Positions 15 through 42,483 are shown, counted from the stretch's first letter. The stretch is DNA of 47,713 nt from a virus (IMGVR_UViG_2541047774_000010); one strand, 5' to 3'. The notes: generated from the letters alone by a model not told the origin. Translations and numbers: made by a program.

Positions 15-692
15 ATGAAGTGGGACTGGATTTTCTTTGATGCCGATGAAACGCTGTTTACCTTTGACTCATTCACCGGCCTGCAGCGGATGTTTCTTGA
101 TTACAGCGTCACCTTTACCGCTGAAGATTTTCAGGACTATCAGGCCGTTAACAAGCCACTGTGGGTGGATTATCAAAACGGCGCGATCACTTCATTACAG
201 CTTCAGCACGGGCGGTTTGAGAGCTGGGCCGAACGGCTGAAAGTTGAAGCAGGCTTGCTTAACGATGCCTTTATTAATGCGATGGCGGAAATCTGTACGC
301 CGTTGCCGGGCGCGGTTTCTCTGCTTAACGCCATTCGTGGCAACGCTAAAATCGGCATCATCACCAACGGTTTTAGCGCCTTGCAGCAAGTGCGTCTGGA
401 ACGGACGGGCCTGCGTGATTACTTCGATTTGCTGGTGATTTCCGAAGAAGTTGGCGTTGCTAAACCGAATAAGAAAATTTTCGATTATGCGCTGGAACAG
501 GCGGGCAATCCTGACCGTTCACGCGTGCTGATGGTTGGCGACACTGCCGAGTCCGATATTCTCGGTGGCATCAACGCCGGGCTTGCGACCTGCTGGCTGA
601 ATGCACACCATCGCGAGCAACCAGAAGGCATCGCGCCCACCTGGACCGTTTCTTCGTTGCATGAACTGGAGCAGCTCCTGTGTAAACACTGA
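15..692 (+). CDS. yjjG: HAD-family pyrimidine 5'-nucleotidase YjjG (host gene)
   Basis: 225-aa ORF; N-terminus [15 protein letters not shown] with the HAD DxD motif and overall sequence match E. coli YjjG as recalled. Confidence 0.93.
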
Positions 693-782
693 TTGCCTCC
701 CCCCCGTTGATGGGTAAAATAGCCGCAATTTTTCGTTTTCAACAAGCGCGGCGCGATGCCGCTTACTCAAGAAGAAAGAATT

Positions 783-857
783 ATGACGTTGTCTCCTTAT
801 TTGCAAGAGGTGGCGAAGCGCCGCACTTTTGCCATTATTTCTCACCCCAATAATTAA
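783..857 (+). pseudogene. prfC: 5' fragment of peptide chain release factor 3 gene, cut by prophage integration
   Basis: ATG at 783 encodes [22 protein letters not shown], matching the RF3 N-terminus as recalled; the frame then reads NN-stop (855-857) where AT-rich phage DNA begins. Full prfC encodes about 529 aa. Confidence 0.85.
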
Positions 858-1007
858 GCCTAAATTAAAGCTCTTTTACTTTTTCAAAGTCCTTTCAGTT
901 AATTGATGTTTGGTTTTATAAGTCATTTAAATACAGTTAGTTATGTGGCTTCTTTAATTGAAAATTCTTTCATGTAACTTTAAATCGATCAGGTTGCTTT
1001 CATCAAA

Positions 1008-1070
1008 AATCTGTACATATGCTTGTACATAATGTACAAAGCAGCAGAGGTGTTTTGCGATTTGTACAAG
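1008..1070. promoter_or_regulatory. Cluster of four TGTACA palindromic hexamers upstream of int (candidate arm-type or regulator binding sites)
   Basis: TGTACA at 1012-1017, 1025-1030, 1033-1038 and 1063-1068 in AT-rich DNA directly upstream of the int RBS (AAGGTGAG). Confidence 0.4.
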
Positions 1071-1077
1071 GTGAGTA

Positions 1078-2313
1078 ATGGCGCTGTCTGATGCGTGGTT
1101 GCGTTCAGTCGTTGGAAAGGAACGTGATAAGGTTTTGGTTAAATCCGATCGTGATGGTCTGTCTGTCAGAGTATCACCGAAAGGTCGCGTAGTGTTCCAA
1201 TATCGTTATCAATGGGCAGGGAAAGGTGAGCGCCTTGATATCGGAACTTACCCGGCAACTGGATTAAAAGAGGCCAGAGAAGAAGTTATCCGTCTCCGTG
1301 GTGAACTCGAGTCAAACCGCAATCCACGATTAGTCAAGCAGGCTGAAAAACGAAAAGCTACTGAAGCCATGACGGTAGAGTCTGTGATCCGTGCCTGGTA
1401 TGAAGCATATTGTGTAAAAAATAAAAAAGGTTCTGAACAGATACTCCGCTCGTTTGAGCTGCACCTGTTCTCTAAAATCGGGAATATCCCTCACGATGCA
1501 GCTACATTGCATGATTGGTTAGAAGTCCTGGAGCCTCTTAGCACCAAGACTCCAGCAATAGTAGACCGATTGCTAATTAACGCAAAGCAGGCTCATGTCT
1601 GGGCGTATAAGAGAAAGCTCATTGAAACTCGCCCACTGTCGGATATCACGGGTAAAGATATGGATATCCGTAAAGGTCAGAAAAAACGGTTTCTGACACA
1701 TGATGAAATTAACATCCTTTATGCTGCGATCGATGGTTCTCGAATGGTTCCTAAATACCGAGCCTTCATTAAACTATTGCTGCATTTTGGTTGCCGTAGT
1801 TCAGAGCTAATTACTGCTAGGGTGGATGATTTTGATTTCATAAATAAGGTATGGACTGTACCACCAGAACGACATAAGACTGGGGACATAACAGGCGAAC
1901 CGCTAAAGCGGCCCATTATTGAACCGGTTGAAGAGCTTATAAAATACGTTATCTCTATGAACAACGGTTCCGATATGCTTTTTACTAAGGAAGGAAGCAG
2001 GGAGCCAGTTGGTCGGACATCATTGCAGTCGCTGCCTTACAATTTAATGCAGTTCGCATGGCGACGTTTGGGGTATCAATTTCCTCATTGGTCTCTTCAT
2101 GATTTGAGACGAACAGCACGAACAAACTTTTCTGATCTTACTGCTCCTCATATTGCTGAAATAATGCTTGGTCATAAACTGCCAGGTGTATGGCAAGTTT
2201 ATGATAAGAGCGATTATCTAGAAGAACAGCGTAAAGCTTACTGGGCATGGTGGGAGAGGGTTGAATCGATCGTTACTTGTACTGACTTAATCTCCAACGG
2301 ACAGTTTGCGTAG
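1078..2313 (+). CDS. int: Phage tyrosine integrase (P4/CP4-57 type, N-terminal arm-binding domain)
   Basis: 411-aa ORF; N-terminal LSVRVSPKGRVVFQYRYQWAGKGERLDIGTYP is typical of the DUF4102 arm-binding domain; C-terminal HDLRRTARTNF catalytic region; position immediately inside the attL junction. Confidence 0.93.
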   Translation: MALSDAWLRSVVGKERDKVLVKSDRDGLSVRVSPKGRVVFQYRYQWAGKGERLDIGTYPATGLKEAREEVIRLRGELESNRNPRLVKQAEKRKATEAMTVESVIRAWYEAYCVKNKKGSEQILRSFELHLFSKIGNIPHDAATLHDWLEVLEPLSTKTPAIVDRLLINAKQAHVWAYKRKLIETRPLSDITGKDMDIRKGQKKRFLTHDEINILYAAIDGSRMVPKYRAFIKLLLHFGCRSSELITARVDDFDFINKVWTVPPERHKTGDITGEPLKRPIIEPVEELIKYVISMNNGSDMLFTKEGSREPVGRTSLQSLPYNLMQFAWRRLGYQFPHWSLHDLRRTARTNFSDLTAPHIAEIMLGHKLPGVWQVYDKSDYLEEQRKAYWAWWERVESIVTCTDLISNGQFA

Positions 2314-2471
2314 CCAGAGCGTAATCATATCTGCCAGTCCGCTGCGGATACCTTGTGTACTGGGTTTTTAGCCAGACTACGTTAACCGGTAGCTTCAGTA
2401 TTTGGGGTGTCGGCAGGAGTTTGATGGTTTATTGGGTTACTGTGGGACTAAGGATGTAGGGATGCCAATCG

Positions 2472-3605
2472 ATGAATTATGAAAAATATCATAGCACAAA
2501 CAGAAGCAAGGGTTTGCGAACCTTCTGCTACTTAATTTATTATGTGCAGGTGATTTTTAATGTGATGAAGTGTTTTATGACTCGCGGAAACTTTGATTTT
2601 ATAAACTCTAACGTGGTTTTCTCAGAAGCCGATAAGTCATTGTGGATTGATCTCATTAACACCGATTGTATTTGGTATGATATGATAATTAATCCTCCTG
2701 ATGATATAAGAACAAATAAGATAATAAAGAACTATCTCAGAATTATGGAAAAATATACGAGGGAAAGCTGTGAAAAGAGATTTATTTATTTCTTAGGTTC
2801 AAGAAAAAAAGTGAGGTTTTCAACCAAGAAACAGCCTAGGTATAACCCATTCACAAAAAATATAGTATTCACTCTGTTGATTGGCAAAGAAGAGCGAAAG
2901 CTTCGGATAAAATATTCCTTTTGCACGTTTACGCAGAATGGGGTAGTGAAGGTAACTCCAAATGTTAGAGTAACTGAGAAGTTTCTCTACATTGAATATG
3001 AAAATGGCAATTTATGTGTGATGTCAGTTCATGATTTCGTAAACGGACATTATATTGATTTAGGAATTCATACAGAAGTGCATTACGTAGGATATACACG
3101 TCATCCGCATCGGCGCCCTGTTGATTTTATTCACCGTGGCTTATCAAAGATGCTGTATAGCGTTTCAAATGACGATAATGATTTTTTTGTTTGTTTTAGT
3201 ATATTTAATCCAAGGATTATATCTCTGAATAATAAATGTAATGTGGTCTTTAATATTTCAAATTCTCTACTGGATGAAATTGATGTTGATAATGAGGGGA
3301 GAATTATTGAAAACTGCTTAATACGTTACTTTGATCCTAAGCTTCAAGATGATGACAAGGAAAGTAAAAGGTCAGATTTAAATAAAATGTTTATGGACCT
3401 GGTGGAAAATAAAAAAATTAAAAAAATATACGTTAATTTTCAATATGAAAGGAATAATGAGTATTTCTGCTTTTACTCTAAAGTTGTTCCGCCGAAATTT
3501 CATCATTTCTTTGTGTTGGATTTTTCTGATGGCAAGATAAATATTGATAGAGACCAGGATATGATGACTCAGATGGCATTGTGCATGGGGTATTATAATT
3601 ATTAA
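2472..3605 (+). CDS. Hypothetical protein, AT-rich cargo gene of unknown function (start may be internal, near 2562-2577)
   Basis: 377-aa ORF in visibly AT-rich DNA (not quantified) unlike flanking phage genes; Lys/Asn/Ile/Tyr/Phe-rich; no family recognised; possible N-terminal hydrophobic stretch CYLIYYVQVIFNV; AGGGA 10 nt upstream of ATG 2472. Confidence 0.6.
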   Translation: MNYEKYHSTNRSKGLRTFCYLIYYVQVIFNVMKCFMTRGNFDFINSNVVFSEADKSLWIDLINTDCIWYDMIINPPDDIRTNKIIKNYLRIMEKYTRESCEKRFIYFLGSRKKVRFSTKKQPRYNPFTKNIVFTLLIGKEERKLRIKYSFCTFTQNGVVKVTPNVRVTEKFLYIEYENGNLCVMSVHDFVNGHYIDLGIHTEVHYVGYTRHPHRRPVDFIHRGLSKMLYSVSNDDNDFFVCFSIFNPRIISLNNKCNVVFNISNSLLDEIDVDNEGRIIENCLIRYFDPKLQDDDKESKRSDLNKMFMDLVENKKIKKIYVNFQYERNNEYFCFYSKVVPPKFHHFFVLDFSDGKINIDRDQDMMTQMALCMGYYNY

Positions 3606-3814
3606 TATTTCGCCTGATGCCAACTCAAAATCTTTTTTGTCGCATCCATTGTGGATTAATATTCAGAGGTAAGGGGTATCTGCGGAATTTATATTTTGCA
3701 GGATGAGCATACAATACATGATATAACATCTGTTTTTGGCACAGAGCATATAGTCAGATTATGTTTAGTTCTGTGCCATAGATGGATATTATCTCACCTC
3801 TTGGCTAACTCTCA

Positions 3815-4009
3815 TTACTCAATAACTCCAGCAAATCTGTATATTTTGCGTGATGCCCATTTATTTGGGCAGGATTTAATATCAGGATCTGGAAAATCTG
3901 GCCTGTATTTCTGGCCTGTCCTCCTGTTTACGCTGTTCCAGCGAAGCACCGTCGATATTGAAACGCCACAGAATTCGGCGACTTGTTTTGTTGTCATTAA
4001 GTTGCTCAT
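3815..4009 (-). CDS. AlpA/excisionase-family HTH DNA-binding protein (putative Xis or regulator)
   Basis: 64-aa ORF with strong RBS (GGAGGGG); TKQVAEFCGVSISTVLRW helix-turn-helix followed by YRPDFPDPDIK...KIYRF, resembling the AlpA/Xis pattern. Confidence 0.5.
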   Translation of the reverse strand: MSNLMTTKQVAEFCGVSISTVLRWNSVNRRTGQKYRPDFPDPDIKSCPNKWASRKIYRFAGVIE

Positions 4010-4043
4010 TGCTACCCCTCCAGCGGTTGTTCAGTTGAAAGAC

Positions 4044-4580
4044 TCATGCGCATGTGCGTAACTCCGATAACTCGTTAAAGCGTTCCATAAACATCCCGTA
4101 GGCATGGCCTGGCGACAGTGGAATAACTTTGAACATCTCTGTGGCAGAGATGCCTTCCAGTACTGGCCAGAAAGAGCCATCATCAAGCCCGAGATCGCGG
4201 CGTTCGGTTGCCAGCATGATGAGATCGGCATATTTCACGGGTGTACTCATAACCGGGGGTAACCCGTATTTCTCACGGATTACTGTGTCTATTTTTTCTT
4301 CCATCCGTTTATAGTCAGGAAGAAAGCGTTTCAGTGGTGCGGGGATGTCCTGGCAATACGCTTCTGTTGCATCATGCATTAACGCTTCAAAAGCAAATTC
4401 CTGCGGTACCAGCTGGCTGCAAAGCACCGCATGTTGGGCGACGCTGTAGAAGTGTGAAAGATGACCGGCAAAGCGACAGATATTTGAAAGGGAAACCGCG
4501 ATATCGTTAATATCGATGTCGTCTTTATTTATCCTGTCATAATAAAAATGCTTCCCGGAAAAAGTTTTAATAAATGACAT
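4044..4580 (-). CDS. yfdR: HD-domain phosphohydrolase, YfdR-like
   Basis: 178 aa from MSFIKTF with RBS GGAGAA; H...HD motif (SVAQHA...ALMHDATEAY); length and sequence resemble CPS-53 YfdR as recalled. Confidence 0.75.
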   Translation of the reverse strand: MSFIKTFSGKHFYYDRINKDDIDINDIAVSLSNICRFAGHLSHFYSVAQHAVLCSQLVPQEFAFEALMHDATEAYCQDIPAPLKRFLPDYKRMEEKIDTVIREKYGLPPVMSTPVKYADLIMLATERRDLGLDDGSFWPVLEGISATEMFKVIPLSPGHAYGMFMERFNELSELRTCA

Positions 4581-6175: not shown

Positions 6176-6584
6176 ATCTCCGGCTTGCGGTTATTTCAGA
6201 CTCTCACGGGTGTTTAATTGCCCCGCCGAACAGCTCTTTTCCGCAATAGCTGCAATGTCTTTCGCGCATCAGCCTGCGCATTCACCACAACGCTGAGAGC
6301 ACTTAGCCAGTTACGGCACCACACTTTGTCGCGGTTCCATAAATGCCCTCATCGTTGCACCCTGGTCTCTTCCCAGGTGTCAAACCGAACCGCCACGCTG
6401 GTTAGGCGTCTTATCAGCATCATCATTGACTTGCACATTCCGGCTACCTGGTTTGTTTGCCCGAGCAAGGAGTGGATTGTCCCCTTTAACGTCCCCAGAC
6501 CGCTAACGACGCATGTGCCATACGCCGTGTTACAACCAAATTTTGTTAGTACCTTGTTTGTTGGTCTGGAAAGAAAGATAAAAT

Positions 6585-6630
6585 GAAGTTGCGCATTATG
6601 CAAGTGTTTTTGTTGCGAGATATGCAATTT
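6585..6630. promoter_or_regulatory. OL-like operator repeats and putative leftward early promoter
   Basis: Two 15-bp sites of form TTGCG-N5-TGCAA (TTGCGCATTATGCAA at 6589-6603, TTGCGAGATATGCAA at 6613-6627), similar to the sites between cI and cro; located just beyond the cI terminator. Confidence 0.4.
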
Positions 6631-6637
6631 GATGGGT

Positions 6638-6662
6638 AATGAAAAGCCACCTTCGGGTGGCT
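6638..6662 (-). terminator. Intrinsic terminator downstream of cI
   Basis: GCCACC-TTCG-GGTGGC hairpin followed on the minus strand by a T-run, about 20 nt after the cI stop. Confidence 0.6.
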
Positions 6663-6682
6663 AATTGATGAGGAGGTAAGGG

Positions 6683-7375
6683 TTAATTGTGTCGCTTAAG
6701 GGTTTGTGACTGGCTGATTAAGACCTTTCCAAAGACCATAAACCGGTGTTCATTTTCGCTGGTAATTCCCCATTCACGGTAAATCTGGTTATCAGAAATC
6801 ACCAGTAGTTTGTCAGGTATCATTTGCAGTCGTTTGACATAAATTTTATCATCAAAACCAAATACATAGATACCATCTCCATCAAACTGATTGATACTGA
6901 CATCAACGAAGATGAGATCTCCTGGCTCAATGGTTGGACACATACTGTCCCCACGAACGTTGATTACTTTAATGTGATTTGCTGGCCGTCCGCCAAACAT
7001 CGATACAGCATTATCAGTTCTGTATTCAATGGCATGAATCACATCAATGACATCACCGCCCTGGATAAGGCCATTTCCCGCACTGGCACTGATATCCAGC
7101 ATTTCAATACGGAATACATCCTTCACCTGCGCAACATCCTCACTAATACTGTTTTTACATACAGTATTACTTTTGAAGTCTGAGGTAAAGAGATCAGCAA
7201 TATCAACACCTAAGCTCCTGGCAATATTACTCAGGGCTTGTTCAGTGAATTGTTTCTGCTTACCTGTTTCCAGGCGCGAGATATTTGCCGCATCCACTCC
7301 TATTGCTTCAGCGAGATCGGCGATTTTCATGTTCTTCGCTTGGCGAAGTTGTCTGACTCGATTTCCTATGTTCAT
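6683..7375 (-). CDS. cI: CI-like prophage repressor (XRE HTH plus S24 LexA-type peptidase domain)
   Basis: 230 aa; N-terminal HTH (VRQLRQAKNMKIADLAEAIGVDAANISRLETG); Ala-Gly cleavage site (SASAG); C-terminal GDSMCPTIEPGDLIFVD with the Lys of the catalytic dyad; divergent from cro. Confidence 0.93.
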   Translation of the reverse strand: MNIGNRVRQLRQAKNMKIADLAEAIGVDAANISRLETGKQKQFTEQALSNIARSLGVDIADLFTSDFKSNTVCKNSISEDVAQVKDVFRIEMLDISASAGNGLIQGGDVIDVIHAIEYRTDNAVSMFGGRPANHIKVINVRGDSMCPTIEPGDLIFVDVSINQFDGDGIYVFGFDDKIYVKRLQMIPDKLLVISDNQIYREWGITSENEHRFMVFGKVLISQSQTLKRHN

Positions 7376-7395
7376 GCGTTTATTACATTTCTTTA

Positions 7396-7458
7396 TTGCG
7401 CGTTAAGCAAATCAACTTGCGCAAAATATTTGCGTGAAATAATATGCTCATCACGCAA
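7396..7458. promoter_or_regulatory. OR operator/promoter region between cI and cro
   Basis: Inverted repeats TTGCGC-N17-GCGCAA (7396-7424) and TTGCGTGA-N13-TCACGCAA (7430-7458); rightward promoter candidate TTGCGC (7417-7422), 17-nt spacer, TAATAT (7440-7445), then cro RBS GGAGG. Confidence 0.6.
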
Positions 7459-7472
7459 TATGTGGAGGTTAT

Positions 7473-7733
7473 ATGCAATCACCATTACGGAATGTGCGTA
7501 AAGCGCACGGATTTACTTTGCAGCATGTTGCTGCTGGCGTTCAGGTCAATCCAGCGACGCTGAGTCGTATTGAAAGACTGGAACAAATTCCATCTATCGA
7601 GCTTGCAGAACGTCTGGCCAATTTTTTTAAGGGTGAAATCAGCGAAATGCAGATTCTTTATCCGGCACGTTTTCAATCTAGCCAAAACCAGAATGGGTTT
7701 AAACCACAGGAACAGGAGATAAGCCGTGGGTAA
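7473..7733 (+). CDS. cro: Cro-like HTH repressor
   Basis: 86 aa; XRE-type HTH (LQHVAAGVQVNPATLSRIER); divergent from cI across the operator region. Confidence 0.85.
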   Translation: MQSPLRNVRKAHGFTLQHVAAGVQVNPATLSRIERLEQIPSIELAERLANFFKGEISEMQILYPARFQSSQNQNGFKPQEQEISRG

Positions 7734-8277
7734 GCATCACTGGAAAGTGGAAAAACAGCCTGAGTGGTACGTGAAAGCTGTCAGAAAAACTATCGCGGCG
7801 TTGCCGGGGGGTTACGCTGAAGCTGCTGAGTGGCTGGATGTAACAGAGAACGCTTTATTCAACCGCCTTCGTGCAGATGGCGATCAGATTTTCCCGCTGG
7901 GATGGGCAATGATTTTACAGCGCGCTGCTGGCACTCACTACATTGCGGATGCTGTCGCACAGTCTGCTGGTGGGGTGTTTGTATCGCTTCCTGAAATTGA
8001 GGAAGTAGAGAACGCCGATATAAACCAGCGCCTGCTGGAAGTCATCGAACAAATCGGGAGTTACTCAAAGCAGATTCGTTCGGCAATCGAAGATGGGGTA
8101 GTGGAGCCACACGAGCAGACAGCAATTAATGATGAGTTGTATCTGTCGATTTCGAAGCTCCAGGAGCATGCGGCACTGGTCTACAAAATTTTCTGCGCTC
8201 CAGAAAAGAGTGACGCCCGCGAGTGTGCAGCTCCGGGCGTCGTGGCGTTTTGTGTCTGTGGAGAAACTAACGCATGA
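7726..8277 (+). CDS. Early regulatory protein in the CII position (YdaT/CII-like); GTG start
   Basis: 183-aa ORF beginning at a GTG with AGGAG 8 nt upstream, overlapping the cro stop; the call rests mainly on position. Confidence 0.45.
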   Translation: MGKHHWKVEKQPEWYVKAVRKTIAALPGGYAEAAEWLDVTENALFNRLRADGDQIFPLGWAMILQRAAGTHYIADAVAQSAGGVFVSLPEIEEVENADINQRLLEVIEQIGSYSKQIRSAIEDGVVEPHEQTAINDELYLSISKLQEHAALVYKIFCAPEKSDARECAAPGVVAFCVCGETNA

Positions 8278-8602
8278 ACAGTTTAACGGCAAATAACCGT
8301 TTGTCGCAACAGCTGGTGGTCAGCGTCTCTGAACACCTGTTGTTACGGCATGAATGCAGATTACCAAATCACCAGGCTGTAAGTAACCACAGAGAACTTT
8401 ACCTGACTGTGGGGGGCGAGTTGTGCAGGAACTTAACCGCTGGTTTCGTGACGGAAGAGGGCTTTATGTTCATGTTATTCGTTGGGAACCAGAAACACAG
8501 CGCGTTATCTATCTTCGCAAAGACTACCCGCATGAGTGCTTTAGTCCTTTGTGGAAATTCAGGCGTGATTTTGTTGAGTGTGACGGACCACCAACACATT
8601 GA
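8274..8602 (+). pseudogene. Small early gene split by a G6 homopolymer (frame disrupted in this sequence)
   Basis: ATG 8274 with good RBS (GGAGA); frame 0 runs through G6 at 8411-8416 into non-coding-looking sequence; the protein-like continuation VQELNRWFRDGRGLYVHVIRWEPETQRVIYLRKDYPHECFSPLWKFRRDFVECDGPPTH (8423-8602) lies in the +1 frame. Confidence 0.4.
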
Positions 8603-8711: not shown

Positions 8712-8879
8712 TGTCATGAGCAGCATTACGCCCAAATTATGGTGGGGCGTGCAGGGCCAACTTCGGTTGGGCCGGGTTCTTTGGTGACCGGTATTTCCAC
8801 CCCTGTACGTCTCACCACCAATAAGGTCGTGGAAAGCCTTGGTGGTGAGTTATTAAAAATCACCAAAGAGGCTGCCATC

Positions 8880-9425
8880 ATGGCTACGATCCCAACCCTC
8901 ACTCAACCTGAAATTGCCATCGTTGATGGTCAGGTTGTTACTTCATCCCTGGCTGTTGCCAACTTCTTCTCCAAACGTCATGACGATGTACTGAAAAAGA
9001 TCCGCACGCTTGAATGCTCAGCATCATTCACTGCCCGCAATTTTTCGGTGAGTGATTACACTGATTGCACAGGTCGCAAACTTCATTGCTACCAAATCAC
9101 ACGCGATGGTTTTGCGTTTCTTGCTATGGGTTTCACGGGTAAACGTGCTGCCCAGTTCAAAGAGGCATATATCAATGCCTTTAACCAGATGGAGAAACAG
9201 CTTTCAAAGCCCGCTGTACCGAGCGACGTTGCACATAACGCCAGCGTTCTCTGTTCCTACATTTCATCAATTCATCAGGTCTGGCTGCAGCAGCTTTATC
9301 CTATGTTGGCAAAAGCCGAATCTCCGCTGGCTGTTAGCTTATATGATTATATTAATGATGCTTCGGCGCTGGCCTGCCTCATAAATTTGTCGCTGAACCC
9401 TTCAGAGGTAAGGGGGCGCAAATGA
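8880..9425 (+). CDS. rha: Rha-family phage regulatory protein (antirepressor-like)
   Basis: 181 aa from MATIPTLTQPEIAIVDGQVVTSS with RBS AAGAGG; motif GFAFLAMGFTGKRAAQFKEAYINAFNQME is typical of Phage_pRha. Confidence 0.8.
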   Translation: MATIPTLTQPEIAIVDGQVVTSSLAVANFFSKRHDDVLKKIRTLECSASFTARNFSVSDYTDCTGRKLHCYQITRDGFAFLAMGFTGKRAAQFKEAYINAFNQMEKQLSKPAVPSDVAHNASVLCSYISSIHQVWLQQLYPMLAKAESPLAVSLYDYINDASALACLINLSLNPSEVRGRK

Positions 9426-9646
9426 TCCGGAATATTTTCAAACGTTTTACCAATCAGACTTTCCGTTGTCCTCGTCCGGGTCAGTGGTACACCACGCCTG
9501 CAGGGCATGTTCTACGTGTTAGCCTGGTTGACCGTGAATGTCAGAAGGTGGTTTGTGAACCGCTGGGCCGTAATTACCGCGTCAGTATGCCGCTTATAGC
9601 CTTTTGCTCCGGAAAAAACATGAAGCATCTCGGAGGTGCAGCATGA
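9422..9646 (+). CDS. Hypothetical protein
   Basis: 74-aa ORF translationally coupled to rha (ATGA overlap) with RBS AGGGGG; no family recognised. Confidence 0.4.
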   Translation: MIRNIFKRFTNQTFRCPRPGQWYTTPAGHVLRVSLVDRECQKVVCEPLGRNYRVSMPLIAFCSGKNMKHLGGAA

Positions 9647-10461
9647 GTATGGAGCTGATGGTTAAAGCGATGAAAATTCGAGTGGGTAATCCATTGCGAA
9701 AACTGGTTCTGATCAAGCTGGCTGATAATGCCAGCGATCAGGGTGAGTGCTGGCCCAGCTACCAGCATATTGCTGACCAGTGCGAGATTAGCAAACGTTC
9801 TGTGATGAATCATATTGCGGCCCTTTGTGATTCCGGGCTGGTAAAAAAAGTCACCCGGAAAAGTGAAAAAGGTAACTCAAGTAATATCTATCTCCTTCAT
9901 CTGGATGGTGCAGGAGATTCACTAGGGGGTAGTGCAAATAATTCACTATCTGGTGCAGCAAATTCACCAGGTAGTGCAGGAGTTGCACCAGGGGGTGGTG
10001 CAGGAGATTCACCCAGAACCAGTCACTCTTTTGAACCAGTCAAAGAACCAGTCAATGAACCAATAGCTGTTGGTGCATCTGCTGATGAGTCTGTGCGAGT
10101 TCGTTCAAACCGACCGGAATACTCTCCGGAGTTTGAGCAGGCATGGCTGGCATACCCCAAACGTGCTGGTGGCAATTCAAAATCTGCAGCCTTCAAAGCC
10201 TGGAAAGCCCGTTTGAATGAGGGGGTAAAACCCGAAACCATGCTGGAAGGTGTGAAACGCTACGCGGGCTGGGTATCTGCGATGGGTAACAGCGGCACAC
10301 AATTTGTGAAACAGGCTGTCACGTTCTTTGGTCCGGATCGTCATTTCGAAGAATCCTGGGAAGTTCCTGCGGTATCTGCAGCCAGACGCGAGGACCCGTA
10401 CTTCAAAGCCAGTTACGACAACGTGGACTACAGCCAGATCCCGGCAGGATTCAGGGGGTAA
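9643..10461 (+). CDS. O: Replication initiator, lambda O-like (N-terminal HTH, iteron-encoded linker, C-terminal domain)
   Basis: Start MSMELMV with RBS GGAGGTG; N-terminal HTH (LIKLADNASDQGECWPSYQHIADQCEISKRSVMNHIAAL); Gly/Ser/Ala linker encoded by the iterons; C-terminal EFEQAWLAYPKR...AFKAWK resembles the lambda O C-terminus. Confidence 0.7.
   Translation: MSMELMVKAMKIRVGNPLRKLVLIKLADNASDQGECWPSYQHIADQCEISKRSVMNHIAALCDSGLVKKVTRKSEKGNSSNIYLLHLDGAGDSLGGSANNSLSGAANSPGSAGVAPGGGAGDSPRTSHSFEPVKEPVNEPIAVGASADESVRVRSNRPEYSPEFEQAWLAYPKRAGGNSKSAAFKAWKARLNEGVKPETMLEGVKRYAGWVSAMGNSGTQFVKQAVTFFGPDRHFEESWEVPAVSAARREDPYFKASYDNVDYSQIPAGFRG
9907..10068 (+). repeat. Putative origin of replication: five ~20-bp iterons plus three 12-bp tandem repeats inside the O-like gene
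   Basis: Five direct repeats of consensus GGTGCAGGAGATTCAC starting near 9907, 9928, 9952, 9970 and 9994; then GAACCAGTCAAA, GAACCAGTCAAT, GAACCAATAGCT at 10033-10068. Confidence 0.55.
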
Positions 10462-10463
10462 TC

Positions 10464-10952
10464 ATGAGTCTTTTGAATGAAGTTCAGAAATTCATTGAAG
10501 CCCATCCGGGGTGTACTTCCGGAGACATTGCAGATGCTTTTGCAGGTTACTCACGGCAGCGCGTTCTGCAGTCAGCAAGCAAGTTACGTCAGAGTGGGCG
10601 TGTGGCTCACCGTTGTGAAGGAGATACACGCAGACATTTCCCGCGCCTGACTGAGAGAGCGCAGGAGCCGGAACCACAACCAGTTCGTGAAACCAGACCT
10701 GTGCGCAATTTCTATGTCGGCACTAACGATCCCCGGGTAATTTTGTGCCTGACCCGCCAGGCTGAAGAACTGGAGTCCAGGGGCTTATACCGTCGTGCTG
10801 CAACCGTGTGGATGGCGGCATTCCGTGAAAGCCACTCCCAGTCAGAACGAAACAATTTTCTGGCGCGCCGTGAGCGGTGCTTACGGAAAAGCAGCAAGCG
10901 CGCTGTATCGGGTGATGAGTGGTATCTGTCAGGGAATTACGTGTGGGCTTAA
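10464..10952 (+). CDS. Hypothetical protein with C-terminal PerC-like motif
   Basis: 162 aa; C-terminal AEELESRGLYRRAATVWMAAF...SERNNFLARRERC resembles the PerC/Pch regulator signature (GLYRRAA) as recalled. Confidence 0.45.
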   Translation: MSLLNEVQKFIEAHPGCTSGDIADAFAGYSRQRVLQSASKLRQSGRVAHRCEGDTRRHFPRLTERAQEPEPQPVRETRPVRNFYVGTNDPRVILCLTRQAEELESRGLYRRAATVWMAAFRESHSQSERNNFLARRERCLRKSSKRAVSGDEWYLSGNYVWA

Positions 10953-11278
10953 TGACGACGTTAACTCAATGCCAGCAGCAGGTGCTGGATATGCTGATTT
11001 CTTATCAGAAAGAACGTGGTTTCCCGCCAACCAATCAGGAGGTGGCAGCCATGCTGGGATACCGTTCGGTGAATGCAGCGGTGGAGCATCTTCGCGCACT
11101 GGAGAAAAAAGGCGTCATCACGATAAAGCGTGGCGTGGCCCGGGGTATCACGCTTCATACCACAGTGAAGGACGACGACAGCGAGGCAGCCGGGATTATC
11201 CGCGCACTGCTTGCCGGTGAGGAAAACGCCAGACTGCGTGCAGCCCACTGGTTACATGAGAGGGGCCTGAAAGTATGA
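10952..11278 (+). CDS. LexA DNA-binding-domain-like protein lacking a peptidase domain
   Basis: Start MTTLTQCQQQV (TAATG coupling to the upstream gene); LTQCQQQVLDMLISYQKERGFPPTNQEVAAMLGYRSVNAAVEHLRALEKKGVI resembles the LexA N-terminal winged helix; no S24 domain follows. Confidence 0.55.
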   Translation: MTTLTQCQQQVLDMLISYQKERGFPPTNQEVAAMLGYRSVNAAVEHLRALEKKGVITIKRGVARGITLHTTVKDDDSEAAGIIRALLAGEENARLRAAHWLHERGLKV

Positions 11279-11664
11279 AGCTGATCCTGCCTTTCCCGCC
11301 CAGCGTGAACACGTACTGGCGACACCCCAACAAAGGGGCGTTTGCTGGTAAGAGCCTGATAAGCGCGGCGGGGCGCAAATTCCAGAGCGCGGCGTGTGCA
11401 GCAATATTTGAGCAGTTACGTCGTCTGCCAAAACCAACGTCGGCACCTGCTTCAGTGGAGATCGTGTTGTTTCCTCCGGATAACCGGATCCGCGATCTGG
11501 ACAACTATAACAAGGCGCTGTTTGACGCCCTGACCCACGCGGGTGTGTGGGAAGACGACAGTCAGGTGAAAAGAATGCTGGTGGAGTGGGGACCGGTTAT
11601 CCCGGAAGGGAAGGTCGAGATCACTATCAGTAAGTACGAGAAAACGGCGGGTGCAGCCGCCTGA
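11275..11664 (+). CDS. rusA: Holliday junction resolvase RusA
   Basis: 129 aa; LPFPPSVNTYWRH...RDLDNYNKALFDALTHAGVWEDDSQV matches the RusA family. Confidence 0.88.
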   Translation: MKLILPFPPSVNTYWRHPNKGAFAGKSLISAAGRKFQSAACAAIFEQLRRLPKPTSAPASVEIVLFPPDNRIRDLDNYNKALFDALTHAGVWEDDSQVKRMLVEWGPVIPEGKVEITISKYEKTAGAAA

Positions 11665-11683
11665 TTAAGAGGAGAAACGAAGT

Positions 11684-12481
11684 ATGAATAATCTGATGGT
11701 TATTGATGGTATTGAAGTTCGTCGTGATGCTTATGGGCGTTACAGCCTGAACGATCTGCACAGGGCTGCTGGTTCTCTGGATAAGCATAAGCCCGCATTC
11801 TGGCTCCGCAATGAGCAAACTGAGCGTTTAATAAGCGAGTTGCAGATTTGCAACTCGGTCAATATAGAGCCAGTTAACGTTATTCGTGGCGGAAATAACC
11901 AGGGGACGTATGTCTGCAAAGAACTGGTGTATGCCTATGCAATGTGGATCAGCCCGTCATTCCATCTGAAGGTGATCCGTACTTTCGACATGGTAACCAG
12001 CGCACCGGAAAAATTATCCGGACAGGCTGCTGACAAGATGCAGGCTGGTGTGATTCTGCTGGACTTTATGCGCCGGGAATTAAACCTGTCTAACTCTTCA
12101 GTGCTTGGTGCCTGCCAGAAACTCCAGGAGGCTGTTGGCTTACCGAATCTGGCACCGCGCTATGCCATTGATGCTCCTGCTGATGCACACGATGGCTCAA
12201 GTCGCCCCACGCTGTCTCTGAGTGCACTGCTGAGGCAGTATGGTATCCGCCTGACGGCTAATCAGGCATATCACCAGATGGTGAAGCTGGGGATCGTTGA
12301 ACAACGCGAACGATACAGCCGTACCGCGATTAACAACATCAAAAAATTCTGGTCGCTGACGGCGAAAGGCTGCATGTTCGGCAAGAACATCACCAGTCCT
12401 GCAAATCCGCGCGAGACGCAGCCGCATTTCTTCGAATCCCGATTCCCTGAGCTGTTAAAGCTGCTCGATACCGTTCATTGA
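11684..12481 (+). CDS. KilA-N domain protein (antirepressor-like)
   Basis: 265 aa with strong RBS (AAGAGGAGAAA); N-terminal KilA-N signature (YSLNDLHRAAG...KPAFWLRNEQT...GTYVCKELVYAYAMWISPSFHLKVI). Confidence 0.8.
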   Translation: MNNLMVIDGIEVRRDAYGRYSLNDLHRAAGSLDKHKPAFWLRNEQTERLISELQICNSVNIEPVNVIRGGNNQGTYVCKELVYAYAMWISPSFHLKVIRTFDMVTSAPEKLSGQAADKMQAGVILLDFMRRELNLSNSSVLGACQKLQEAVGLPNLAPRYAIDAPADAHDGSSRPTLSLSALLRQYGIRLTANQAYHQMVKLGIVEQRERYSRTAINNIKKFWSLTAKGCMFGKNITSPANPRETQPHFFESRFPELLKLLDTVH

Positions 12482-12482
12482 G

Positions 12483-13430
12483 GTGACCGTGAGAGCACTA
12501 CTGACCCCTGAAATTGCCCCGCGTATGGGGATTGTATTGTTCAGGCCAGGTTCAGAGCTGATGCCCCTGTTTATGCAGGGGCGTGTCCTGCTGGAGCCTG
12601 AGCCGGAACGTTATTCATCTTTCGCCAGTGGTGCCGTTCCGGCGGCATCACAACCGCTGGCGGATGATCCTGCCGTTCGGGCCGTGTTCCGCAATGAGGC
12701 AGTGATCCGTCGTGCTGGTGGCGTGGAATGTCTTGAAAGCTGGTTACTTCGTGAAAAGGGCTGTCAGTGGCCTCATTCCGACTGGCACAGCGAGAACATG
12801 ACCACAATGCGGCACGCTCCGGGAGCAATTCGTCTGTGCTGGCACTGCGATAACCAGCTGCGTGACCAGTTCACGGAACGGCTGGAATCAATGGCAACGG
12901 ATAACTGTGCCCGCTGGGTGTTGTCTGTCGTGCGTCGGGATCTCGGTTTTGATGACAGTCACGTTGTGACAATGCCGGAACTGTGCTGGTGGCTGGTTCG
13001 TAATGATTTGGCGGATGCCTTACCGGAAAGTGCAGCCCGTAAGGCACTGAGATTACCGAAGCCTGTTGTGCCATCTGTCACCCGGGAAAGTGACCTTGTG
13101 CCTTCGGTTCCTGCCACCAGCATCATCCAGGATAAAGCGAAAAAGGTGCTGGCGCTGAAAGTGGATCCGGAGTCGCCGGAGTCTTTTATGTTACGCCCCA
13201 AACGTCGCCGCTGGGTTAATGAAAAGTACACGCGCTGGGTTAAGACGCAGCCGTGCGCATGTTGTGGAAAGCCAGCTGATGATCCCCACCACCTGATAGG
13301 CCACGGTCAGGGTGGAATGGGTACAAAAGCGCATGATCTCTTTGTGTTGCCTTTGTGCAGAAAGCATCACGACGAGCTGCATGCGGATACCGTGACATTT
13401 GAAGAGAAGTATGGCTCCCAACTGGAGTAA
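12483..13430 (+). CDS. ydfU: DUF968-family protein, YdfU-like, C-terminally truncated by IS4
   Basis: 315-aa ORF with Cys/His cluster (CACCGKPADDPHHL...CRKHHDELH); the stop TAA at 13428-13430 is supplied by the first bases of IS4; the original last ~20 codons sit after the IS (14854-14917). Confidence 0.75.
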   Translation: MTVRALLTPEIAPRMGIVLFRPGSELMPLFMQGRVLLEPEPERYSSFASGAVPAASQPLADDPAVRAVFRNEAVIRRAGGVECLESWLLREKGCQWPHSDWHSENMTTMRHAPGAIRLCWHCDNQLRDQFTERLESMATDNCARWVLSVVRRDLGFDDSHVVTMPELCWWLVRNDLADALPESAARKALRLPKPVVPSVTRESDLVPSVPATSIIQDKAKKVLALKVDPESPESFMLRPKRRRWVNEKYTRWVKTQPCACCGKPADDPHHLIGHGQGGMGTKAHDLFVLPLCRKHHDELHADTVTFEEKYGSQLE

Positions 13431-14853
13431 TGCCAGTCAGTTAAGCAACTGACTGGCTCTTTTTCGGGGCTGTGGGGTATTTCCAGGGCCTCTCCTTTAC
13501 CACTCTCGGGAAGGCCCTTTCCCTTCTTGTCGGTAATTTCACAAGTTGTCCCATACTTGCAAGATCGTGCATCAGCTCCGGTATACGTCCCGGTGAAGCG
13601 CCCTGCAATGTCATCAGCATTCTCATCACCATTCCGCATGATTCTGAGAAACTCAGTTGATTCGGCCAGTAACCTTTCAGATGTTCCGCCATTTTAATCA
13701 TCTGATATCTCACCAGATTATAAGCCAGTAAGACACCCCACAGCTCTTGCTCCACAAGCTCCGGCTTTTTACTTCTCAGCGTCAGCCTGCTCAGTTGCAT
13801 CGTCTGTTTTATCTCCCTGTATCCCAGTTCGATTTCCCAGCGATGACTGTACAGATCCGCCATTTCTCCTCCGGGGAAGCGCATGGCGTCCGTCATCGAC
13901 GTCAGCAGATGGCAGACTTTTCCTTTGCGCGTCACGGTCAGCAGGCGGGCTGTCACCTCATTTCCCAGTCCCGGCCACTTTTTTCGTGCCTGCGGGCTGG
14001 TTTTCAGCTTCACCAGATGATCGCCTTTACCCAGTTTTCTGATCTCTTCATATTGCGCTCCCTTTCTGAGAGGGATCATCCAGTGGCGGTGTTCTCCCGC
14101 CAGGCTCCAGGCATTTAACAGTCCCAGTGAGTAATAACCTTTGTCCATTAACGTCAGAGTGTTATCGCCGGTTTGTTCTATAAGTTGCTCAGCAAGCTCA
14201 TTTTCGCTGTTCTTCATCGTGCCGAAGGCTGCAGCCGTCAGCAGATGGCTGGTCAGTTCCATCTGGCAGACCATTTTGACCTGCGGGTAGAGCGCCGGGT
14301 TCCCGGCATGTGTCTGGCGGGGGAAGGCTGCATCGTTCTCTGGTGTATCCGGTGTGCGCCAGAACACACCATCGATGGCCAGCAGGGTCAGGCCGCACCA
14401 TTGCGGATGCGGCGTGGCGTTATGCCAGAGCTGCGCTGTTTTCGTGAACACGCGGCGGACAGCCTCACTTCCCAAGCGCTGGCGGGCCTGAATAACGGCA
14501 CTGGGGGCAACGAAGGGGCGATTGCCCGGCAGCATGATGTCCAGGCGATTCACAATCTGGTGAAGAGGTTCTTTACGCTCAAGCGCCATGCCAACAATAC
14601 ACCAGACCATCATTTCGAGGGGAAGACGGCGCTTGCGTAGCGTTACAGTACCTGATTCGGCAAGGCAACGAGAGATGAGTTCGGGGTCGAGGTAATCCCC
14701 CAGAGAAGTCAGTGGGTTACGCAGAGAATCGTAACGGGATACCAAATCAAGGGCCTGTCCAATGTGCATAAAAAAATCCGGAAACGAGTGAGCGTTTCCG
14801 GATTCTTACACAGCCACTGGATCGGTCAACTGATCCTTAACTGATCGGCATTA
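13428..14853 (-). mobile_element. IS4 insertion sequence, complete, with 13-bp target site duplication
   Basis: 1426 bp, the canonical IS4 length; terminal inverted repeats TAATGCCAGTCAGTTAAGC (left) and reverse complement of TAATGCCGATCAGTTAAGG (right); flanking direct repeats CTCCCAACTGGAG at 13415-13427 and 14854-14866. Confidence 0.92.
13441..14769 (-). CDS. insG: IS4 transposase
   Basis: 442-aa ORF matching the IS4 transposase in length and sequence as recalled. Confidence 0.93.
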
Positions 14854-19700: not shown

Positions 19701-20060
19701 ATTAATATTAAATCGGATTATTTTTAGCGCTGAATGTGAAATTTAAATAAAAAGGACTCTTCCATGAGTCAAAATCCTTGAAATCTTAAGGGTAAGATAA
19801 AAGGTCATTAGACAGAATGACACGTTTTATTAATAAATAAAGCTATTGTTTCATTCGTGTGTTTTTCTTTACAAAAGTAATCCTTGCTATGGTTGGTTAA
19901 TCATGCGTTAATGGTGTTCTGGTTTGTTACAAAATTATCTGAAGCAGTCATTGTTATAATTTTATTATTTGTACCTCTTGAGATCTCCTTGTTGGTTTTT
20001 CTCTCTGATATTTTTTTTCGGACCATTCTGCCCAAGGGCTAACTTCTTCAAAAGGTAATA

Positions 20061-20276
20061 ATGATGTCTAACAAAATGACTGGTTTAGTGAAATGGTTTA
20101 ACCCTGAAAAAGGTTTTGGTTTCATCACGCCGAAAGATGGTAGCAAAGATGTGTTTGTCCATTTCTCAGTTATTCAGAGCAACGATTTCAAAACGTTAAC
20201 TGAGAATCAGGAAGTCGAATTTGGTATTGAGAACGGACCTAAAGGCCCCGCGGCTGTTCATGTAGTGGCACTTTGA
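20061..20276 (+). CDS. cspI: Cold shock protein CspI-like
   Basis: [70 protein letters not shown] matches CspI as recalled. Confidence 0.88.
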
Positions 20277-20480
20277 GGTAGAAAATATTACAAACCATAT
20301 TCACTTTAGATGCCCGTGTTGCCATGGTTCTCAGTATAGAACATCATCTTTTGATGTTTCTGACAGGAATCCTTTCGGGGCAAAATGTATCTTTTGTAAA
20401 TCAATGATGATTACATTTGATAATATTTCACAATACTTAAATGTTAGCCGTCTGTCGTTAGATTTAAGAAAGTGAAAATG

Positions 20481-20505
20481 AAGGCTCCTTCGGGAGCTTT
20501 TTTGC
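20481..20505 (+). terminator. Intrinsic terminator
   Basis: GGCTCC-TTCG-GGAGC hairpin followed by TTTTTTG. Confidence 0.55.
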
Positions 20506-20547
20506 TTAGTGTCTAGTCGATGGATACTCACATATTACGGTAACATT

Positions 20548-20778
20548 ATGAAAAAAATAATAGTTTTTTTTAACTCTGAACCAGCAATGGTAGTGCCAGT
20601 GATGACCGGAGTTAACACCATCATGCGTGAATATCCAAATGGCGAAACAACACACCTCACTGTAATGGCTGCAGGGTTTCCATCTCTGACCGGAGATCAT
20701 AAAGTCATTTATGTAGCAGCGGATCGACATGTAACTTCAGAAGAAATTCTGGAAGCAGCAATGAGACTCTTGAATTGA
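20548..20778 (+). CDS. Hypothetical small protein
   Basis: 76 aa from MKKIIVFFNSEPA; no family recognised. Confidence 0.4.
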   Translation: MKKIIVFFNSEPAMVVPVMTGVNTIMREYPNGETTHLTVMAAGFPSLTGDHKVIYVAADRHVTSEEILEAAMRLLN

Positions 20779-20950
20779 TTTGATTCTAATGCATTGATAA
20801 TAAATGATAATCATCTTTATCTGTTTGTGTGAAATTTAGACCGTCGTATGTTGATTATTGCGATGTTTCATCTTATCTTTTATACGTTTGCTCCATATAA
20901 TTGACACTACTGTGTACCAGGAAAGTCATAACAGACTAAAAGAGGAAATG

Positions 20951-21124
20951 ATGAACATTGAAGAGTTAAAAACAAAAACAGAAGCAGATATTTCTGAATA
21001 TATAACAAAAAAAATCATTGAGCTTAAGAAAAAGACCGGGAAAGAAGTTACCAGTATCCAGTTTACTGCACGGGAAAAAATGACTGGTCTTGAAAGCTAT
21101 GATATCAAGATTGATTTAATCTAG
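20951..21124 (+). CDS. gnsB: GnsA/GnsB-family small protein
   Basis: 57 aa MNIEELKTKTEADISEYITKKIIELKKKTGKEVTSIQFTAREKMTGLESYDIKIDLI matches GnsB as recalled; RBS AAGAGGAA. Confidence 0.8.
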   Translation: MNIEELKTKTEADISEYITKKIIELKKKTGKEVTSIQFTAREKMTGLESYDIKIDLI

Positions 21125-21419
21125 TATGTTTATAGTATTAGCATCAATTTCTCATCAGATGCTATTCAACAATACAAATTACCCATAAACCTCGTTTTTA
21201 CGGGGTTTTGTTATATTTAAACATTACCGAATAGATATAAATCTCGATTGTCGATGGTATTGGTTGTGTGACAATACCTAGTCTTTCCGGTATGCCTGAA
21301 GAGAATACAAACGACAGATTATGTAAGGGAAACGCGCTGAAACTTTCACTCTTTCATGCTGAGTGATTTGACGTTATATTTTTAGCCGCAAGTGAAGAGC
21401 AAACGCATGGAGCGACAAA

Positions 21420-21626
21420 ATGCATAAAGATCAATACACTGATGCCCCCTCCCAGGAGCAGGTTCGTGTAAAAACTATGCTTAATAGCACCATTTCGATG
21501 GGTTACCCGGATGTTGTAATTGCATGTATAGAACATCAAGTATCTCTGGAAGCATTCAGGGCAATTGAGGCCGCGTTAGTAAAGCACGATAAGAATACGA
21601 AGGATTATTCCCTGGTGGTTGACTGA
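21420..21626 (+). CDS. Hypothetical protein, homolog of the small lambda ORF near cos
   Basis: 68 aa; ...[38 protein letters not shown]...DYSLVVD matches the lambda right-end ORF as recalled, and the downstream DNA continues lambda-like up to the IS3 insertion. Confidence 0.6.
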
Positions 21627-21779
21627 TCACCATAACTGCTAACCATTCTGACCATTTCACAAGTGACAGAGTCAATATCGTATTCTGTCACTGTCAGGCT
21701 AATACAGTACTGCAATTCAACTACAGCAATGCCTCGTATTTAGGTGAATTGATCCTACCCACGTAATATGGACACAGGC

Positions 21780-22646
21780 CTAAGCGAGGTTCTGGTTTTC
21801 AAATTGTTCCGGACTGAGGCCGCCACACCAACTGTGCCGCCGCCACCGATTGTAATCACATTCGATATAATTAAACACCGTTGCCCGCATTATTTCCCGG
21901 CTGATAAAGTGTTCTCCATGGATACATTCCACTTTCAGCGAATGAAAGAAGCTTTCCACGCAGGCATTATCGTAGCAGCAACCTTTTGCGCTCATACTTC
22001 CACGCAGATTATGCCGCTTCAGTTGCGCCTGATAATCTGCTGAACAGTACTGGCCTCCACGGTCCGTGTGAACGATAACGTTCCGGGGCCTCTTACGCCG
22101 CCACAGCGCCATCTGCAGGGCATCGCAGGCCAGTTGCGCCGTCATGCGTGGCGACATTGACCAGCCAATAACGGCACGTGACCACAGGTCAATGACCACT
22201 GCCAGATACAGCCAGCCTTCATCTGTACGTAAGTACGTGATGTCTCCTGCCCACTTCTGGTTCGGGCCACTGGCGTAAAAATCCTGCTCCAACAGATTTT
22301 CTGACACAGGCAGGCCGTGTGCGCGGTAGCTGACCGGGCTGAACTTCCGGGAGGCCTTTGCCCTCAGTCCCTGACGGCGCAGGCTTGCCGCCACGGTTTT
22401 TACGTTAAAGGGGTAACCCTGAGCACGCAGTTCATCCGTCAGGCGTGGGGCACCGTAACGCTGTTTTGACCGGGTAAAAGCCGCGAGGACAACGCTGTCG
22501 CAGTGTTGGCGGAACTGCTGACGCGTGCTTATCCTTGTCCGCCGCTGACACCACGTATACCAGCCGCTGCGGGCCACCCGGAGCACGCGGCACATTGCTT
22601 TGATGCTGAACTCAGCCTGATGTTTTTCAATAAAGACATACTTCAT
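21780..22646 (-). CDS. insF: IS3 transposase OrfB (expressed as OrfAB by -1 frameshift)
   Basis: 288 aa [21 protein letters not shown]..., matching IS3 InsF as recalled. Confidence 0.93.
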
Positions 22647-42472: not shown

Positions 42473-42483
42473 GTGGGGTGAAT

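Follow-up and report, generated by a model that had tools for sequence, protein, structure and literature searches.

A candidate stand-alone GIY-YIG-like defence nuclease encoded in the int-xis slot of a prfC-integrated Escherichia coli prophage

The prophage and its integrase-proximal gene

The viral sequence IMGVR_UViG_2541047774_000010 is a stretch of 47,713 nucleotides (nt), referred to here in its entirety as the window, and the gene considered below is a single AT-rich cargo gene that lies beside the integrase gene of the prophage it contains. The window starts in the E. coli chromosome, with yjjG followed by a fragment of prfC, and continues into prophage DNA that is identical to Escherichia phage PhiR63_1 (PV340573); identical prophages are present in 62 of 5426 complete E. 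coli genomes. As read from these junctions, the 5' end of prfC is the site of integration, and a 69-nt prfC fragment remains at attL. Because prfC must stay functional, its replacement 5' end presumably comes from the phage end at attR, which lies beyond the window. The genes that follow are int (+), the cargo open reading frame (ORF, +), a small helix-turn-helix (HTH) excisionase-like gene (-), yfdR, yfdQ, yfdP, cI and cro (Table 1). On its right side the slot is bounded by this conserved HTH gene, which is transcribed towards the cargo gene; in sister prophages, the homologous DNA carries the annotation of an HTH or MerR-family regulator.

Table 1. Features of the int-xis region, with positions in the window unless a sister locus is named; residue numbers refer to the 342-amino-acid (aa) form of the cargo protein
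Feature	Position	Strand	Evidence or remark
yjjG	15-692		chromosomal gene just before the prfC insertion point
prfC 5' fragment at attL	783-851	+	prfC match, then divergence; 69-nt partial coding sequence (CDS) in the RefSeq annotation of every sister genome
Tyrosine integrase gene int	1078-2313	+	conserved left edge of the slot; matches to Pfam Phage_integrase, Arm-DNA-bind_3 and Phage_int_M
Variable cargo cassette of the int-xis hotspot, about 1.4 kilobases (kb)	2344-3710		homology breaks against 12 sister prophages
Open 5' extension, non-coding (leader or promoter region)	2472-2576	+	L031 frameshift; L034 and L024 stops; M-x-R-G starts
Promoter-like site TTGCGA-18-TATTAT (weak evidence)	2514-2543	+	consensus scan, 9/12 matches; 34 nt before the start codon
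Cargo gene, 342 aa, unnamed family (PHROG 7779; WP_225092812.1)	2577-3605	+	phrog_7779 E 1e-246, ORF residues 36-377; PGAP CDS
N-terminal region, residues 1-145	2577-3011	+	helices and a beta-rich module, conserved basic motif RFIY71F..SR76xK78VR80F
Predicted divergent GIY-YIG-like nuclease core, residues ~146-262	3012-3362	+
Motif Y170-V-G172-x-T174-x-x-P177-x-x-R180...H186 (YIG strand and candidate catalytic Arg and His)	3084-3134	+	includes RRPVDFIH
E245 codon, candidate catalytic (metal-binding) glutamate	3309-3311	+	E in 74/90; hhalign alignment
C-terminal alpha/beta domain, residues 263-342	3363-3602	+	model secondary structure; S301 80/90, H310 79/90, F312 conserved
Excisionase-like HTH gene, 64 aa	3815-4009	-	HTH_17 and MerR N-terminal matches, E 4e-4
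Unannotated slot cassettes (equivalent to 2344-3710)	L010/L014/L027 6409-7650; L011 6325-7301; L015 6591-7586; L017 6522-8431; L028 6010-6729

Base composition and true start of the cargo gene

A first-pass annotation of this DNA had drawn attention to a 377-codon ORF just downstream of int, in DNA far richer in AT than its neighbours, and both statements hold. The ORF is present at 2472-3605 on the plus strand, 158 nt after the int stop codon (2313). The GC content of the cargo CDS is 0.321 (0.327 at third codon positions), compared with 0.444 for int, 0.465 for yfdR and 0.499 for the window, and it is the lowest of all 1029-base-pair (bp) segments in the 47.7 kb (mean 0.50, standard deviation 0.064), about 2.8 standard deviations under the mean. 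Homologues are likewise AT-richer than their flanks, in 10 of 10 loci.

PGAP and PHROG 7779 both take a 342-aa form that starts at ATG 2577. Every homologue starts with M-x-R-G right after a Shine-Dalgarno sequence, and in Cronobacter AAGGAG directly precedes the ATG equivalent to 2577. Within the 105 nt of the 5' extension, a 1-nt deletion in the E. coli allele L031, the core of which carries 14 synonymous and 7 non-synonymous changes, puts ATG 2472 out of frame, and the upstream DNA of two homologues (L034, 82% identical; L024, 78% identical) contains in-frame stop codons. On this comparative evidence the conserved start is ATG 2577 and the predicted product has 342 aa. The internal start proposed in the first-pass annotation was thus right in principle and wrong in position: GTG 2562 and ATG 2565 are not conserved, and Cronobacter has no start codon there. 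A hydrophobic stretch, CYLIYYVQVIFNV, had also been read as a possible N-terminal segment of the protein, which would make it a candidate membrane anchor; because the conserved start is ATG 2577 and the 5' extension is not coding, it falls in the non-conserved DNA upstream and outside the protein. Where synonymous divergence (dS) is unsaturated, the ratio of non-synonymous to synonymous divergence (dN/dS) is 0.12-0.17, and judged from these comparisons the cargo gene is real and under purifying selection.

An exchangeable cassette between int and xis

In pairwise alignments, homology to 12 sister prophages ends at 2287-2343 and resumes at 3711-3816. Because it breaks right after the int stop and just before xis, the 1.4-kb cassette contains exactly one gene, and the earlier proposal of a separately acquired cargo gene in an int-proximal slot is borne out, the gene being the sole content of a variable cassette between conserved int and xis. 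At 95-100% identity, 700 of 5426 E. coli genomes contain the integrase, which sits at prfC in every locus examined. Only 62 have the cargo gene, and these are essentially the genomes of the class whose integrase is at least 99% identical.

The occupants of this slot in 13 sister prophages with the same prfC-targeting integrase include Dsr1 (two cases), a dGTPase (two cases; PADLOC E 3.5e-105), a split Borvo BovA/CHAT (one case) and AIPR (one case), i.e., known defence genes in 6 of the 13. It was this kind of setting that the first-pass annotation had in mind when it named the gene a candidate for an undescribed defence function, and the sister slots agree with it. The other seven slots hold five types of cassette without a PADLOC match, which encode a 413-aa protein (three cases), a 331-aa protein, a 239-aa protein, a pair of 150 and 160 aa, and a trio of a 164-aa protein, a DUF4325 protein and a 369-aa protein; the DUF4325 (STAS-like) domain is the sole Pfam match in these seven. 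At least five unannotated cassette types are therefore further defence candidates. The slot occupants that were measured have a GC content of 0.31-0.40, except Dsr1 (0.52), and a homology test gave no matches between the other occupants and the cargo family. With regard to the split Borvo BovA homologue (L013), its two ORFs (6352-7134, 260 aa; 7293-8483, 396 aa) match the N- and C-terminal parts, respectively, of a 720-position PADLOC model, and they represent either a two-gene variant or a disrupted gene.

The concept of a prophage defence hotspot comes from P2 and P4 prophages (Vassallo 2022, PMC9519451). The int-xis slot resembles these hotspots in its fixed position between conserved phage genes, in its mutually exclusive and mostly AT-rich cassettes and in the fraction of these that is known defence, whereas it differs from them in its place, between int and xis of a lambdoid prophage that integrates in prfC and has a KplE1/CPS-53-like yfdPQR early region. 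The slot bears the marks by which a prophage defence hotspot is recognised in P2 and P4. No description of such a hotspot in prfC prophages was found in the searchable literature. Rousset 2022 is also said to deal with prophage and satellite defence hotspots (P2, P4).

At least 58 of the 62 carrier genomes, 60 of which are listed, have an intact cargo gene, at 98% identity or more. In H131 (NZ_CP027340.1) IS1 disrupts the gene, in H73/H138 (NZ_CM128544.1) IS1 lies about 10 nt before its stop codon, and in H80 (NZ_CP148334.1) homology ends after approx. 69% of the 2300-3800 query, inside the 3' part of the gene. These damaged loci represent occasional loss of function in an otherwise intact gene.

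The protein family and its domain layout

The family to which the 342-aa protein belongs comprises 47 clusters in a word-indexed search at 90% identity; at 50% identity (E <= 1e-3), a search of 1.84 billion representatives yields 216 clusters. Members of full length have about 300-345 aa, a few reaching 415 aa; the shorter entries represent fragments, and there is one architecture, with no fusions among the family members. All members are labelled hypothetical, and their hosts are Enterobacterales, Robbsia, Arcobacter, Psychrobium, Pseudomonadales and Acinetobacter. No publication naming or describing the family was found in literature searches by phage name, by protein accession and for GIY-YIG prophage defence. 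Two alignments are referred to below, namely a narrower one (A1) and one of 90 members of the wide family (A3), over which all conservation counts were taken; the wide family is only 19-36% identical overall.

An AlphaFold2 model built with the family alignment (predicted local distance difference test, pLDDT, 90.8; predicted template modelling score, pTM, 0.88) depicts a globular alpha/beta protein with three parts (Table 1). Foldseek comparison of the full-length model with PDB and BFVD gave only matches of low probability and high root-mean-square deviation, a search that is uninformative for a multi-domain model, and PDB sequence and profile searches gave chance matches only. The C-terminal domain is a candidate sensor or oligomerisation module.

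A divergent GIY-YIG-like core

The starting lead was the segment HYVGYTKNPxxRPxxxxHRG, which resembles the YIG-Arg-His part of GIY-YIG nucleases, and four independent tests of this lead gave concordant results. A reference alignment was built from real EndoII, YhbQ, UvrC and I-TevI sequences, and hhalign placed the central domain of the wide family profile on it with P of 1.2e-4 to 2e-4 and a probability of 46-55%, compared with P of 0.2-0.7 for the controls (N-domain, C-domain and reversed profiles); the C-terminal domain gave no GIY-YIG match in this control alignment. Among 90 divergent relatives, PF01541 is the sole Pfam family with more than two matches (nine relatives, best E 1.8e-4, sub-threshold), and the window protein itself does not reach the Pfam gathering score for it. 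A small GIY-YIG hidden Markov model matched residues 160-262 in dozens of family members. In the model, the core consists of a three-stranded sheet with flanking helices that superposes on solved GIY-YIG domains.

The active-site positions can be followed from the YIG strand onwards, which is where the profile alignments begin. Y170-V-G-x-T-x-x-P-x-x-R180 aligns on vYIGKTKNLrKR of T4 EndoII, UvrC and I-TevI, and the spacing of 10 from Tyr to Arg is that of I-TevI (Y17/R27) and of the canonical YIGxTxxLxxR. The motif Y170...R180...H186 is invariant in A1, and its residues persist in 71-81 of the 90 wide-family members; conservation there is 75/90 for Y170, 79 for G172, 80 for T174, 73 for R180, 71 for H186, 87 for D202 and 74 for E245. 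As to the catalytic Glu expected in the helix after beta3, hhalign places ..IIE245..L..YF..Q257 on ..LEE118P.F..LFNPPWN130 of EndoII, so that E245 aligns with E118, and I-TevI has the same context (IIE75). Q257 (56/90), at +12 from E245, has the offset of EndoII N130 from E118 and would take the Asn position, with N260 (46/90) as an alternative. Candidates for the Tyr of the GIY strand are found at V151-H152 (H in 68/90, Y in 13/90), which is 18 residues upstream of YIG and helical in the model, and at F69-I-Y71 (Y in 80/90), which is 99 residues upstream and would imply a domain inserted in the hairpin.

Fold, YIG-Arg, His and Glu all agree with the GIY-YIG superfamily, whereas the GIY strand is atypical and the score lies below the Pfam threshold. 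On the strength of sequence profiles and the model, fold and motif relate the protein to this superfamily, with the central domain as a divergent GIY-YIG-like core. The statement of the first-pass annotation that the protein could be assigned to no family consequently holds for the standard libraries and fails in that a link to the GIY-YIG superfamily can be drawn. A similar division applies to the R-x5-H spacing (RRPVDFIH) that had been offered as weakly HEPN-like. The spacing (R180...H186) is real and is shared with HEPN ribonucleases, and both residues are conserved in the cargo family. However, a HEPN protein would combine an all-alpha fold with R-x4-6-H at the active site, and HEPN is ruled out on the fold.

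Genomic contexts of distant homologues

The surroundings of 13 homologues were examined. The family co-localises with recognised defence genes, which lie within 8 kb in 6 of the 13 contexts (raw count); four more contexts are of toxin-antitoxin or mobile-element type, one of them a conjugative Serratia plasmid that carries a family member. In Robbsia, the order is BrxR, BilABCD, the family gene and then two reverse-transcriptase genes, and in Klebsiella a type I restriction-modification system and a reverse transcriptase lie on one side and HNH-ScoMcrA on the other. In an integrative and conjugative element of Salmonella, Dcm, DUF4928 and Vsr lie near the family gene as a separate unit 770 bp away. 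A metagenome contig island contains another GIY-YIG protein, a giant methyltransferase-phospholipase D (PLD)-helicase protein and DUF3375; in a further island HNH and methyltransferase genes and SymE stand beside the family gene, in Proteus it stands beside CTD6/MC2 conflict-system domains near smpB, and in one context its neighbours are CcdAB and PIN. In A. baumannii (CP040048.1, L037), a 27%-identical member (7001-8005) lies beside an antitoxin at the end of a block of endonuclease, transposase, transposase and 'excisionase' genes (neighbours at 8838-14630), and from this gene order it looks like cargo of a Tn7-like transposon. It should be noted that several Acinetobacter records labelled 'plasmid', 0.6-3.9 Mb in size, evidently represent chromosomes.

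No partner gene is conserved in the window or in the 13 homologue contexts; because no neighbour is conserved, the gene would appear to work alone. Among 50,697 phage records, the cargo gene is found in one (PhiR63_1), and most homologues lie in chromosomal islands that are not phage.

Comparison with characterised nucleases

The nearest functional parallel is CMoRE/PD-T4-3, a single-protein GIY-YIG type IV restriction endonuclease of E. coli with a C-terminal modification sensor (PMC12923530; PDB 9u75), which is defined by a GIYxY-YIG motif, an N-terminal nuclease, cleavage that depends on 5-hydroxymethylcytosine (5hmC) or glucosyl-hmC, and protection against T-even phages (PMC12923530). By analogy, it is CMoRE/PD-T4-3 that the cargo protein would most resemble in its way of working, yet it is not a member of that group. 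No sequence match to CMoRE/PD-T4-3 was obtained, with 0 PADLOC families at E <= 10 and a PDB profile search that did not return 9u75. CMoRE/PD-T4-3 has 248 aa and an N-terminal nuclease, whereas the cargo protein has 342 aa and a central GIY-YIG core; it also lacks GIYxY, and the flanking domains are unrelated. An acidic loop, SNDDND (residues 197-202, window 3165-3182), lies directly before strand beta3 of the nuclease core and ends in D202, the most conserved residue of the whole family. The suggestion that this loop recalls the autoinhibitory acidic loop of CMoRE, at a different position, is speculation.

Other GIY-YIG enzymes are more distant in organisation. T4 endonuclease II (DenA; PDB 2wsh), with which a lytic phage degrades the cytosine-DNA of its host, consists of a single domain of 136 aa, whereas the cargo protein is longer by about 145 residues at the N-terminus and 80 at the C-terminus, is encoded in a lysogeny-side cargo slot and is found for the most part in bacterial islands. 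The type II enzymes R.Eco29kI and R.Hpy188I are always accompanied by a cognate methyltransferase, whereas the cargo gene has no adjacent one in the window or the 13 contexts. Homing endonucleases such as I-TevI and Seg, which reside in phage genomes or introns, begin with the catalytic domain and end with a DNA-binding module, the two being joined by a linker; none of this applies to the cargo protein.

A probable role in defence and its alternatives

The gene probably encodes a stand-alone cytoplasmic GIY-YIG nuclease, carried as exchangeable hotspot cargo, that defends the lysogen by cleaving DNA brought in by phages or other mobile genetic elements. We infer nuclease activity, the anti-phage role and the mode of discrimination from sequence and from analogy with known systems. 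In such a protein, the GIY-YIG core (Y170-V-G, R180, H186, E245 and Q257 or N260 in the Asn position) would sit between family-specific modules and cut the incoming DNA, while self-DNA would be spared by the protein itself: since no methyltransferase, immunity gene or other partner is conserved, discrimination between self and non-self should be intrinsic. The flanking domains might read a feature of foreign DNA in a type IV-like manner, as in CMoRE/PD-T4-3, or the enzyme might be autoinhibited and released on infection. A more specific arrangement, which we regard as possible though rather doubtful, is that the GIY-YIG site is built around an inserted DUF971-like beta module (with F69-I-Y71 as the GIY strand, approx. 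95 residues from YIG) and that this module and the C-terminal S301/H310 domain serve as the sensor. If so, discrimination or phage-DNA specificity would be unlike that of every characterised GIY-YIG enzyme, CMoRE included.

Several observations weigh against a defence nuclease. The 342-aa protein has no match in NCBIfam, PADLOC or PDB sequence searches and no Pfam GIY-YIG match, its sole Pfam match being NNH2 (E 0.05), which was dismissed. There is no Tyr at the canonical GIY distance, 10-11 residues before YIG, and 8-16 of the 90 relatives lack Y170 or E245. Four of the 13 homologue contexts contain no defence or mobile-element genes. With regard to expression signals, promoter-like sites in the region are no commoner in the consensus scan than in shuffled sequence, and a terminator scan of the cargo region found none. 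Finally, the PhiR63_1 record names ECOR13 as host, and ECOR13 is reported to be natively susceptible to T4, lambda-vir and T7 (PMC9519451); if ECOR13 is the PhiR63_1 lysogen, it follows that the cargo gene blocks none of these phages. The phage name suggests that PhiR63_1 originated from ECOR63, with ECOR13 as indicator strain. No ECOR strain is among the 60 of 62 carrier genomes that are listed.

These observations bear above all on the first of four other explanations, according to which the GIY-YIG-like fold has been kept in a protein that is no defence nuclease, i.e., a moron or accessory product (DNA or nucleotide binding, regulation, a fitness factor) or a silenced passenger. The non-canonical GIY motif, the relatives without Y170 or E245, the contexts free of defence and mobile-element genes and the reported phage susceptibility of ECOR13 all count for it, as does the fact that very AT-rich DNA is a typical H-NS target in E. 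coli. We nonetheless consider this explanation unlikely, because Y170, R180, H186 and E245 are each kept in more than 78% of so divergent a family, and because defence genes predominate both in the slot and in the neighbourhoods. Somewhat less probable still is a nuclease toxin or addiction module that stabilises its mobile elements, or an orphan type II-like GIY-YIG restriction enzyme. Beside the gene, neither the window nor the 13 other contexts have a conserved cognate methyltransferase or antitoxin; moreover, an orphan nuclease with constitutive activity would kill its host, yet nearly all carriers have the gene intact.

A role in the phage life cycle, be it degradation of host DNA as by T4 EndoII or recombination and repair in lytic growth, appears improbable, as the gene stands outside the early and late operons, co-oriented with int and convergent with the early-left operon, and about 640 sister prophages lack it, unrelated cargo taking its place. 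Its near-absence from phage records and the location of most homologues in non-phage chromosomal islands argue in the same direction, and they argue equally against a selfish free-standing GIY-YIG homing endonuclease inserted between int and xis. To this last explanation we give very little credence, the least of the four: the catalytic domain is central instead of N-terminal, no DNA-binding module of the NUMOD, IENR1 or HTH type was detected, and the slot holds many unrelated cassettes, bona fide defence systems included. All four explanations are less consistent than a stand-alone defence nuclease with the exchangeable slot, the near-absence from phages, the lack of partners and the domain layout.

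Taken on sequence and analogy, the cargo protein is a credible new defence nuclease candidate rather than a surprise, and the hotspot is a useful by-product. If confirmed, it would add to the stand-alone nucleases a new family that spans about 216 sequence clusters in Proteobacteria and is invisible to Pfam, NCBIfam and PADLOC. The int-xis junction of prfC-integrating prophages, for its part, is a defence hotspot for which no earlier description was found and which about 13% of complete E. coli genomes contain. Like CMoRE, a single-protein enzyme of the GIY-YIG kind with putative sensor modules might prove to have a specificity for modified DNA that is of practical use.

Other features of the window

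Rfam and repeat scans of window positions 700-4200 found nothing relevant. The excisionase-like HTH gene is not annotated in the RefSeq genome ExPEC XM, and PV340573 annotates a plus-strand ORF (3696-4061) that overlaps it and is probably spurious. Between xis and yfdR, sister prophages have a DUF551 gene and a 120-aa hypothetical gene (L012 8267-9249; L015 8154-9136), both of which are missing from the window at the 4027/4038 junction, and this xis-yfdR junction is a second indel-variable point of the early-left region. The second most AT-rich stretch of the window (approx. 20000-21650, GC about 0.35) lies downstream of the lysis genes; it contains a cold-shock protein gene (20061-20276) and several small ORFs and is followed by an IS3-family transposase gene (21780-22646). 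Near the far end of the window, a gene for a Pin/Hin-like serine DNA invertase (46510-47100, -) adjoins tail-fibre and tail-fibre-assembly genes (42478-46412), which suggests an invertible host-range segment nearby.

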